Shown: piece after piece, positions 14,373 through 16,076 of the stretch | Numbering within the stretch: the first letter of the stretch is position 1 | Layout: each line of letters starts with the position of its first letter | Assembly (NCBI GenBank): GCA_964549705.1 | Contig: CAZJUX010000002.1 | Span: 3,007 to 67,006 of the forward strand | Direction: 5' to 3' | Source: an uncultured Candidatus Saccharibacteria bacterium | GTDB taxonomy: Bacteria > Patescibacteriota > Saccharimonadia > Saccharimonadales > Saccharimonadaceae | DNA: 64,000 nucleotides | The notes under the pieces: model-generated | Database searches by the model: none | Told to the model about the DNA's origin: nothing | What the model saw: the letters and a program-made list of their open reading frames with translations, nothing else | Position numbers and translations under genes: made by a program

Positions 14373-16076
14373 CTATCTGAGCCAATCTTCTGAGCCATTG
14401 ATGATAGTGCCAGCAGGGATCTCGCCTGCGATGAGCCGTTCAGCAACAGGCATTTCGAAGTGATTGGCAATTAAGCGCTTAACTGGTCGAGCCCCAAATA
14501 GCGGGTTGTAGTCAGCTAATAATAATTGTTCGATAAGTTGGTCGGGCACTTCAAATTTGATCTGTTGCGAGGCTAGTTGTTGTTCGAGCTTGATAATTTC
14601 TCGTTTAGCGAGAGTAATTAATTGAGGCACTGCTAAAGGTTGGTAAACTAGGATCGCGTCAAATCGATTAATGAACTCGGGGCGAAAATTCGATAACAAA
14701 ATCGGCATTAGGTTTTTCTTAACAAAACTTTGGCTAGATATATCAATCCCTTGGCTGGTGGCAGAAACAATTTCTTGGCTACCGATGTTTGATGTCGCTA
14801 GCACCATAGTATGGGTGAAATCTATCGTTTCGCCACTGGAGTCAGTTAACCGCCCATCGTCTAGGAGTTGCAGAAAAACATCGAATAATTTAGCGTGGGC
14901 TTTTTCAATCTCGTCTAGTAAGACTAGCGATGACGGTTGCCTCTTGACGGCGCTTGTTAATTGACCACCTTCTTCATAACCGACATAGCCTGGTGGCGAG
15001 CCAGTTAGTCTTATAGCACTATGGGCTTCACTGAACTCACTCATATCTAATCGGACTAGCGCTTTGGGGTTTTCATAGACAATTGACGTCAGAGCTTTGG
15101 CGGTCTCGGTCTTGCCAACGCCAGACGGTCCGAGGAGGAGAAATGAGCTACGGGGACGATGAGTATCTCCAAGCCCCAATTCATTTTTGATAATTGACCG
15201 AGTAATAACTTTCAAAGCTTTAGTTTGTCCGATAACATGCTCATTTAATTTCTTTTCAAGTGAAGCTAAGTGGGCGTTACCTTTGTTCTTTAGGCTTGAA
15301 ACAGGGATTTTTTCACGCTCAGCGATAAACAGCTTGATATCTTCAGTGGTAATCTGCTTTTTTCCATCGAATATCGCTTTGACGGCGACGTCCTCAATCA
15401 GTCTCAGGCCTATATCAGGCAGAGAGCGGCCATGATTGTAGCGGTTGGTGAGGAGGATAACCTCGTCTATAGTTTTTTCGTCAACCAAGACGCCTTGGTT
15501 TGTAAATGCTTGGTGGAGGATACCCTTGATATCCGACCGACTTAATTCCTCAATTTCCAGCCGCGTGAGCAATCTACCAAAAGTATAGTCGCCTTGAAAA
15601 GTTTTATCGTAGGCCGTTTTTGTCATGCTAACAACTAGACGAATGTTTGGAATATCGGCAATCATCTGGAGCAAGCTAACAGTTTGCTCGAGACGCACTG
15701 GATCGTTGACCGCTAGTAATTGAATATCTTCGATGACGATAATAGCTCCTGGAAGGTCGGTGAGATTTGTGCGGATAGCTTGGTAGCAGGCTTGAATGCT
15801 ATCACCAGCCACTAATAGATTTAGAATCGGGTTTATATCAAGCTCATACATCTTGCCGGGCAGAACGGGGATAGCCTCATCGGCGACTGCTTGAGCTAGC
15901 ATAGTTATGAGGCTACTTTTTCCGATACCTGGTTCGCCAATAATTACGGCGTGGTGATGGTTCGGTTTGAGCAAAATCTGGGCTAACCTCCTAAGTTCGG
16001 TTTCACGACCAGAAATAGGCGGTGCATTCTTCGACCTAGAAACTAGATTGAGGAATTTAATTGATACTTCACTCAT
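14373..16076 (-). CDS. Atypical Hsp100/Clp AAA+ ATPase (no N-domain, no M-domain, degenerate D1)
   Basis: D1 GEPGIGKS with Walker B IIVIEDIQ; D2 [37 protein letters not shown]. Confidence 0.85.
   Translation of the reverse strand: MSEVSIKFLNLVSRSKNAPPISGRETELRRLAQILLKPNHHHAVIIGEPGIGKSSLITMLAQAVADEAIPVLPGKMYELDINPILNLLVAGDSIQACYQAIRTNLTDLPGAIIVIEDIQLLAVNDPVRLEQTVSLLQMIADIPNIRLVVSMTKTAYDKTFQGDYTFGRLLTRLEIEELSRSDIKGILHQAFTNQGVLVDEKTIDEVILLTNRYNHGRSLPDIGLRLIEDVAVKAIFDGKKQITTEDIKLFIAEREKIPVSSLKNKGNAHLASLEKKLNEHVIGQTKALKVITRSIIKNELGLGDTHRPRSSFLLLGPSGVGKTETAKALTSIVYENPKALVRLDMSEFSEAHSAIRLTGSPPGYVGYEEGGQLTSAVKRQPSSLVLLDEIEKAHAKLFDVFLQLLDDGRLTDSSGETIDFTHTMVLATSNIGSQEIVSATSQGIDISSQSFVKKNLMPILLSNFRPEFINRFDAILVYQPLAVPQLITLAKREIIKLEQQLASQQIKFEVPDQLIEQLLLADYNPLFGARPVKRLIANHFEMPVAERLIAGEIPAGTIINGSEDWLR

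Follow-up and report, generated by a model that had tools for sequence, protein, structure and literature searches.

In ClpA, a two-ring (class I) Clp/Hsp100 protein, the first of the two stacked AAA+ modules (ATPases associated with diverse cellular activities), D1, serves mainly for assembly, whilst the second, D2, does most of the hydrolysis. A conceptually similar arrangement, with one ring binding nucleotide and holding the hexamer together and the other acting as the motor, is known from NSF D2 and Pex1/Pex6 D1, which belong to different AAA+ clades. ClpV (TssH) of the type VI secretion system (T6SS) and HSP101 of the Plasmodium translocon of exported proteins (PTEX) are Hsp100 motors that operate free of ClpP for one dedicated client or pathway, together with which they are encoded or assembled. 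Cobalamin riboswitches, most of which are OFF switches, are found in the 5' leaders of genes such as btuB/btuFCD, cob/cbi, metE and nrdAB/nrdDG; their known targets are genes for transport, biosynthesis or salvage and B12-independent isoenzymes and, to our knowledge, include no Clp ATPase, disordered protein or coupling-type ATPase. Here we describe a 567 amino acid (aa) Clp/Hsp100 ATPase, the 'short Clp', encoded on a 64,000 nucleotide (nt) stretch (the window) of contig CAZJUX010000002.1 from an uncultured Candidatus Saccharibacteria bacterium, the surrounding genome being 769 kb in 33 contigs and 95% complete. Judged from sequence, the short Clp is a member of the cobalamin regulon, and it appears to represent a distinct Clp/Hsp100 subfamily that is restricted, as far as seen, to Patescibacteria.

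The two-ring class I architecture is evident from Pfam matches, from an AlphaFold2 model and from structural comparison. In the Pfam scan, D2 matched AAA_2 (residues 307-475, E 4e-55) and ClpB_D2-small (residues 485-559, E 4e-14), the D1 half gave weak generic AAA matches and a sub-threshold AAA_lid_9, and no Clp_N domain was found. The model, built on 65 family sequences with a mean predicted local distance difference test score (pLDDT) of 89.2, consists of two AAA+ modules with a short helical linker between them and shows no coiled-coil M-domain; the best Foldseek matches to it are ClpB and ClpC protomers, headed by ClpB 6qs6. In comparisons with solved structures, D2 scored 284 bits against Thermus thermophilus ClpB and D1 48 bits. 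A ClpA model covers the protein in one stretch (residues 10-559 aligning to model positions 176-730), and the match to the ClpB model is broken into two stretches with the M-domain region missing. All three NCBIfam scores lie far below the respective cut-offs: 392.9 bits against 1232.1 for ClpB (TIGR03346), 376.3 against 993.15 for ClpA (TIGR02639) and 315.4 against 884.95 for ClpV/TssH (TIGR03345).

None of the named families could accommodate the protein. Identity as a ClpB was rejected on the missing M-domain and a TIGR03346 score far under the cut-off; as a ClpA, on the lack of Clp_N, the presence of SQGIDI where IGL stands and the TIGR02639 score; as a ClpC, on the absence of Clp_N, the short M-domain and the [VL]GF loop alike; and as a ClpV/TssH, on the TIGR03345 score and on its neighbours, which are pgi, a gene for an acidic protein and nrdJ.

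The motifs of the short Clp (Table 1) were aligned with those of ClpB and ClpC from the same genome and with annotated ClpA, ClpB, ClpC, ClpK, ClpL and TssH. The marks of an active D1 ring, namely an hhhhDE Walker B motif, an Arg-Arg pair and a pore-loop Tyr or Phe, are lacking. The D1 Walker B motif reads IIVIED, against ILFIDE in the reference Clps, such that Glu-Asp replaces Asp-Glu; the pore loop reads AGDSIQ, against AGAKYRGEFE, with no counterpart to the GEFE stretch; and the Arg pair is Arg-Leu (FGRLLT) instead of Arg-Arg, the first Arg being kept and the second lost. D2 is fully canonical (GPSGVGKT, GYVG, LLDEIEKAH, Arg finger NR and sensor 2 GARP). At the position of the ClpP-docking loop, where ClpA has IGL and the genome's own ClpC has ELGFAP, containing LGF, the short Clp has SQGIDIS, modelled as an ordered, non-protruding turn of seven residues with a pLDDT of around 93.

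These features characterise a whole family. In a protein search, more than 60 clusters of proteins 566-585 aa long, 48-100% identical and labelled Saccharibacteria or Saccharimonadia, were retrieved, along with remoter homologues of about 545-560 aa from other Patescibacteria, with 34-43% identity. Across the 65 aligned members, the D1 Walker A residues G50 and G52 are invariant and K53 is present in 60; by comparison, no member has Glu at the catalytic Walker B position, a single one has an aromatic residue in the D1 pore loop, and the second Arg is never found, the first being present in 45. The tripeptide [ILV]-G-[FL] occurs at the ClpP-loop position in 0 of the 65, with Ile, Leu or Val never preceding the Gly, and a ClpP partner of the canonical-loop kind was rejected on that basis; the D2 motifs do not vary. 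Working from the single sequence, the initial annotation had reported no N-domain and no M-domain, a non-canonical D1 Walker B, a missing D1 pore-loop aromatic, no IGF or IGL loop and an intact D2, all of which was borne out; its description of an altered D1 Arg-finger region also stands, with the correction that one Arg of the pair is retained. Its proposal that D2 drives the protein gains support from the family-wide loss of the D1 catalytic Glu alongside invariant D2 motifs, and its view that this is not a protease subunit, at least by the canonical route, agrees with the absent tripeptide and the short turn predicted in its place.

The sequences indicate that the family is under strong purifying selection. 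Relative to an 86%-identical orthologue (80% in D1, 90% in D2), the non-synonymous divergence (dN) is 0.09 and the synonymous divergence (dS) saturated, giving a dN/dS of approximately 0.03 (0.034), a single whole-gene value that the saturation prevents from being split between D1 and D2. The reading frame is intact in every lineage examined, and the relaxed selection by which a decaying paralogue should be recognised was not seen. In a maximum likelihood tree of 53 sequences and 570 columns, computed by a quick search with Shimodaira-Hasegawa-like approximate likelihood ratio test (SH-aLRT) supports, an arbitrary root and one or two references per named family, the short Clps form one clade (SH-aLRT 99), the branches of which group by lineage. 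This sits within a long-stemmed clade, supported at 100, that also includes Patescibacteria Clps of 717-743 aa, whilst the ClpA, ClpB, ClpC, ClpK, ClpL and TssH references all fall outside it; hence the expectation that the protein would not nest within ClpA or ClpC held. The 717-743 aa relatives have kept Clp_N, lack the M-domain and ClpP loop, and have a degenerate D1 in all but one case; they were not found in the acidic-protein and riboswitch setting described below.

Compared with the systems introduced above, the short Clp resembles ClpA in having two stacked AAA+ modules without a coiled-coil M-domain and in aligning end to end with its model. Its composition would fit an extension of the ClpA-type division of labour between the rings. 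It differs from ClpA in lacking Clp_N, and hence any ClpS-type adaptor site, as well as the IGL loop, the D1 catalytic Glu, the second Arg and the pore Tyr, and in forming a separate clade. Its highest similarity is to the D2 of ClpB (about 44% identity, the 284-bit match), and like ClpB/Hsp104 it has no ClpP loop; however, it lacks both the M- and N-domains, its D1 pore loop and Walker B are degenerate, and it lies outside the heat-shock regulon. The likeness to ClpV and HSP101 is an analogy of function only, as both retain an N-domain and an active D1, unlike the short Clp; ClpV is a distant branch in the tree, and the neighbourhoods read showed no T6SS genes.

The gene directly upstream encodes an acidic, disordered protein, the stop codon of which overlaps the Clp start codon by 4 nt (ATGA). 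Nineteen loci were compared: the window and 18 others, ten from genomes and eight from homologue-encoding contigs. An acidic protein is encoded directly upstream of the short Clp in 19 of 19, with the 4 nt overlap in most and a gap of 9-10 nt in three (L016-L018). In the further loci it is 363-916 aa long, with an isoelectric point (pI) of 4.0-4.6 for complete sequences and a net charge of -47 to -109. These proteins are too divergent for BLAST, but have in common an N-terminal domain of about 100 residues, a long region rich in Pro, Thr, Ala and Glu, and a tail. In most loci the tail consists of an Arg/Lys-rich stretch with small residues at the end, the Arg/Lys stretch being missing in a few; the last residue is Ala in 11 of the 19 proteins and Val in six. 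A word-indexed protein search with the window protein matched itself alone. When a profile of its folded domain was run against 1.84 billion proteins there were 19 matches, all of the same architecture and with no informative fusion among them, and a Foldseek search with this domain gave nothing significant, the best matches being PAS/LOV folds (E 0.04, template modelling score about 0.45). Such constant coupling to one kind of protein favours the initial annotation's suggestion that the ATPase is dedicated to a specific client.

The cassette occurs in two forms. The two-gene form, comprising the acidic protein and the Clp, is found in the window, in a 70%-identical relative (G008) and in five further loci, the window and these relatives constituting one clade in the tree; L006 and L020-L024 are of this form. 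In the window, a convergent pgi follows the Clp gene, with neither a small protein nor a TrwB/TraD-like ATPase encoded downstream; elsewhere in the genome there are TrwB/TraD-like paralogues at 39-40% identity only. The four-gene form characterises nine loci from family f43, a second one of the Saccharimonadia, and three from other Patescibacteria. Its third gene, absent from one of these 12, encodes a protein of 79-142 aa, and it also includes a P-loop ATPase of 414-730 aa that carries the signatures TrwB_AAD_bind and TraG-D_C and lacks a hydrophobic segment. Since an entire clade of Saccharibacteria does without the small protein and the ATPase, which resembles type IV coupling proteins, the minimal core would consist of riboswitch, acidic protein and Clp.

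The strongest clue to the biology of the cassette, overlooked by the initial annotation, is that the two-gene operon has a cobalamin riboswitch aptamer (Cbl-II, RF01689) in its leader. Eighteen loci with upstream sequence were scanned for an aptamer positioned before the partner gene on the same strand. Fifteen have a cobalamin aptamer at the Rfam gathering score, one of them an adenosylcobalamin (AdoCbl) aptamer (RF01482) rather than RF01689; two more fall just below gathering (45.7 against 50 bits and 36.1 against 36.5 bits, both with E < 1e-6), and one has a weak match with an E of 0.05. Six cassette-bearing genomes were searched in their entirety, and each has a single copy of RF01689, the one belonging to the cassette; a whole-genome search of three same-genus genomes without the cassette did not find RF01689. 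The loci resemble known cobalamin-riboswitch regulons in having a Cbl-II or AdoCbl aptamer in the 5' leader. Folding of the leader revealed no convincing expression platform (z-score 0.36), and a scan of it for consensus promoters and terminators performed no better than on shuffles; hence OFF-switch logic stays an assumption.

Table 1. Positions in the window of the short Clp, its motifs, its partner gene and selected neighbours
Feature	Position	Strand	Details
Short Clp/Hsp100 ATPase, 567 aa	14373..16076	-	D1 about residues 1-240, D2 about 241-567
D1 Walker A GEPGIGKS	15915..15938	-	residues 47-54; intact
D1 pore-loop remnant AGDSIQ	15792..15809	-	residues 90-95; aliphatic instead of Tyr/Phe
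D1 degenerate Walker B IIVIED	15726..15743	-	residues 112-117; Asp at catalytic-Glu position
D2 Walker A GPSGVGKT	15108..15131	-	residues 316-323; family-invariant
D2 pore loop GYVG	14979..14990	-	residues 363-366
D2 Walker B VLLDEI	14907..14924	-	residues 385-390; D388 and E389 invariant
ClpP-docking-loop position, SQGIDI instead of IGL/VGF	14739..14756	-	residues 441-446
Partner gene, 541 aa acidic disordered protein	16073..17698	-	pI 4.5, net charge about -47; no Pfam/NCBIfam match
Folded domain of partner	17177..17497	-	residues 68-174; small alpha/beta, AlphaFold2 pLDDT 87; sole folded part
Basic C-terminal tail of partner, ...FSHDRRKKKNNRRANKPLTTRAAA	16076..16165	-	ends ...TTRAAA
Cobalamin (Cbl-II, RF01689) riboswitch aptamer	17777..17851	-	5' leader of two-gene operon, 78 nt before ATG of acidic protein
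nrdJ, B12-dependent class II ribonucleotide reductase, 770 aa	18128..20440	+	context gene, divergent
ClpB, 716 aa	29036..31186	+	M-domain present, N-domain absent; CIRCE-like inverted repeat at 28963-28989

Divergent from the cassette is nrdJ, encoding a B12-dependent class II ribonucleotide reductase (RNR). Amongst 41 close relatives, an nrdJ of this type is present in two, which are the same two genomes that carry the Clp cassette (the genome itself and G008). Overall, a B12-dependent class II RNR was found in 20 of the 22 tested genomes with the cassette: beyond these two, 19 of 20 have an RNR of NrdJ_Z type above the TIGR02504 cut-off, whilst G196 has only sub-cut-off fragments and the RNR of G008 was scored by homology alone. 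A strict co-occurrence of nrdJ with the cassette was considered and rejected, since the two-out-of-two agreement among the relatives fails at the level of the class, with the f43 genomes using another NrdJ type. In a 70%-identical relative (L022:824-3902), cobA and nrdJ directly adjoin the riboswitch-led cassette in divergent orientation, and a gene for a Crp-family regulator follows them; the cobA and Crp genes of the window are 8 kb away (25662-26859). The pgi gene (12713-14356) and the RTPR-like nrdJ of the window are found only in its own genome and G008, pgi having been checked in five same-genus genomes and nrdJ in the 41 relatives. Other members of the genus have a different RNR of about 803 aa, just under the NrdJ_Z cut-off; this sub-lineage has kept or acquired a gene block absent from the rest of the genus. 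In several Patescibacteria genomes, NrdJ_Z matches are split inside open frames of 1122-1359 aa (G473:C5, G670:C2, G709:C14, G772:C8 and G673:C15), which suggests intein-like insertions in the reductase.

The short Clp is also set apart from the heat-shock genes. The window has three inverted repeats resembling the controlling inverted repeat of chaperone expression (CIRCE), of the TTGGCACTC-N9-GAGTGCCAA type with two mismatches each, where 0.04 would be expected by chance. They precede genes for Hsp20 (repeat at 8963-8989, gene at 9057-9482) and ClpB and hrcA (repeat at 62894-62920, gene at 62914), and the scan of the window found none near the short Clp gene, as the initial annotation had reported. 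By sequence, the three genes make up a compact HrcA regulon, ClpB being part of it and the short Clp outside. The ClpB that was contrasted with the short Clp as a normal one is indeed present, but is itself without an N-domain: it matches TIGR03346 with 1140 bits over model positions 150-852, such that its start corresponds to about canonical residue 150. In most same-genus genomes, the ClpB match falls within an open frame of similar length (about 720-750 aa). The genome encodes, in addition, ClpP and a separate ClpC with Clp_N and the LGF loop. A further class I Clp, cut at a contig edge (G000:C12:90-1133) and 35% identical to residues 202-557 of the short Clp, probably corresponds to the Clp of about 870 aa in other members of the genus; the set of the genome would accordingly be ClpB, ClpC, a third long Clp, ClpP and the short Clp.

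The distribution of the short Clp is patchy. Counted over genomes as sampled, with no phylogenetic correction, it is present in two of 41 close relatives (its own genome and G008), in ten of 401 Saccharimonadia, the nine besides its own all being in family f43, and in 12 of 401 Patescibacteria from at least six families, or about 3% of the sampled genomes of the phylum. This rarity, together with the missing M-domain and the position outside the HrcA/CIRCE regulon, is in keeping with the initial annotation's opinion that it is no general chaperone.

The reading that we favour, with a probability of about 0.6, is that the short Clp is a ClpP-independent, D2-driven motor dedicated to its co-encoded acidic client and made when B12 is scarce. 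That it is dedicated, independent of ClpP and made at low B12 is drawn from the absent ClpP tripeptide, the coupling to one partner, the tails that are alike in most loci, the position outside the heat-shock regulon and the riboswitch; hexamer formation, hydrolysis by D2 alone, the client relationship and the OFF-switch logic are what we infer. The protein would form a hexameric, ClpP-independent threading motor, in which the D1 ring most likely binds nucleotide without hydrolysing it and serves as a static assembly and guide ring, since Walker A is kept whilst the catalytic Glu, second Arg and pore aromatic are lost. The D2 ring would be the sole motor, both hydrolysing ATP and pulling. It would be produced only along with the upstream acidic protein; as both genes lie behind the cobalamin riboswitch, the pair would most likely be expressed at low B12, if this is an OFF switch. 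The basic tail of the partner, mostly ending in Ala or Val, is a probable handle for the motor or, in other lineages, for the co-encoded TrwB/TraD-like ATPase. It could be gripped by the Clp pore in the manner of an ssrA tag, which fits both the two-gene and four-gene forms; by analogy, it could instead be a signal of the positively charged, C-terminal type that type IV coupling proteins recognise, as known from work on Agrobacterium VirB/D4, which would apply to the four-gene form only. The substrate to be threaded, extended or handed over would then be this single client rather than bulk misfolded protein.

Several observations weigh against this reading. With Glu-Asp at its Walker B, D1 might still hydrolyse slowly. 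Of the 65 family members, 56 share a Gly at the ClpP-loop position, which may be a remnant or reflect a different docking mode; a free C-terminal Ala-Ala is the classic degron of ClpXP and ClpAP, and regulated proteolysis through an unconventional contact with ClpP, which the genome possesses, keeps some share of the probability. Gene coupling is what points to the acidic protein as a client, and would also suit an adaptor or a scaffold. The aptamer of the window, at 37.3 bits against a gathering score of 36.5, is barely above threshold. Finally, window-type NrdJ is present in seven genomes of the class sample without the cassette, and B12-dependent RNRs in at least ten genomes without it, and therefore the link to B12 is regulatory rather than one of strict co-occurrence: organisms with the cassette are B12-dependent, but the presence of the cassette cannot be predicted from such dependence.

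Were the short Clp instead the ATPase of a regulated protease, docking ClpP in a non-canonical manner and degrading the upstream protein by way of its Ala-Ala degron, then the ClpP of the genome, the ssrA-like Ala and Val ends of the partner and the conserved Gly of the loop position would all find a place. We regard this as unlikely, given that the hydrophobic-Gly-Phe/Leu tripeptide is absent from all 65 members, that the modelled turn leaves no protruding loop, that a ClpC with an LGF loop is already available, and that making a protein from the same operon merely for degradation needs an extra rationale. Rather improbable, too, is a chaperone for B12 enzymes or their cofactor, either reactivating or loading the class II RNR or stripping cobalamin from carrier proteins. 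It would account for the riboswitch control, for the adjacency of nrdJ and/or cobA to the cassette in the window, L006 and L022, with an RNR near it in L016, and for the B12-dependent RNRs in 20 of the 22 cassette genomes, with two unsettled. Against this, the f43 loci have no such adjacency to nrdJ, B12-dependent RNRs are common where the cassette is missing, an OFF switch would silence a reactivase just when the holo-enzyme exists, and the long acidic protein is left without a role.

A mobile-element module of the conjugation-type secretion kind, or an anti-phage one, with the B12 genes nearby only incidentally, seems very unlikely, even though most lineages have a TrwB/TraG-D-like ATPase in the cassette and the distribution is patchy. 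Conjugative plasmids of Gram-positive bacteria (pLS20-type) do pair short Clp-like ATPases, of 594-619 aa and without N- or M-domains, with genes for VirD4-like coupling proteins, which parallels the TrwB/TraD-like partner; such loci were observed in transfer regions of conjugative or mobilisable plasmids with VirD4-like, VirB2 or MobL genes in Lactiplantibacillus, Enterococcus and Staphylococcus (L031:1492-3276, L032:5977-7761 and L033:5917-7776). However, the plasmid Clps are a separate clade with the opposite defect, their D1 being canonical (FIDEIH, RRF) and the GYVG pore loop of their D2 deleted. The loci read have no relaxase, VirB4, integrase or phage genes nearby, the neighbours being housekeeping genes (pgi, nrdJ, ftsZ/ftsA and enolase); the protein tree groups by lineage, and the riboswitch is conserved across classes. 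PADLOC gave partial matches to DolB and PDC-M37B, but these span residues of about 233-441 only, which is generic AAA_2, and the partner proteins were unmatched; membership of the Dodola (DolB) and PDC-M37B defence systems was rejected, there being neither a full-length match nor any to a partner gene. Least credible of all is a general stress chaperone or disaggregase, or else a decaying Clp paralogue: the D2 is closest to that of ClpB, at the 284 bits to the T. thermophilus protein, but there is no M-domain for coupling to DnaK and no CIRCE, unlike at ClpB, Hsp20 and hrcA, and decay is at odds with the dN/dS of around 0.03, with the frame being intact throughout and with the changes in D1 themselves being conserved.

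If the short Clp does act as such a dedicated motor, it would be a natural Hsp100 without an N-domain, M-domain, ClpP loop or D1 catalysis that is yet strongly conserved, and as a minimal one-motor threading ring it would offer a ready test of what D1 contributes. Riboswitch biology would be extended in that a protein-remodelling machine would join the cobalamin regulon. A full-text search of the literature found no description of the short Clp subfamily or its cassette, nor of a cobalamin riboswitch preceding a Clp gene; the system around the short Clp may be new, whilst the protein itself is a variant of Clp/Hsp100.

A broader and more doubtful proposal, which we put forward tentatively, is that the riboswitch, acidic protein and short Clp, together with the ATPase and small protein in most lineages, make up a B12-starvation machine of these ultra-small episymbionts. 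Low cobalamin would lead to the production of a tail-tagged polyanionic protein and a ClpP-less motor that extends, exports or hands it over, the purpose being to obtain from the host or surroundings either cobalamin or precursors of deoxynucleotides with which the B12-dependent reductase is bypassed. With an Hsp100 ring as its basis, this would be a vitamin-linked acquisition system of a new kind. Patescibacteria depend on hosts for cofactors and nucleotides; given this dependence and the B12-dependent RNR, the cassette, as the one B12-sensing operon that the search of six genomes revealed, would provide a handle on how these organisms cope with scarcity of the vitamin.

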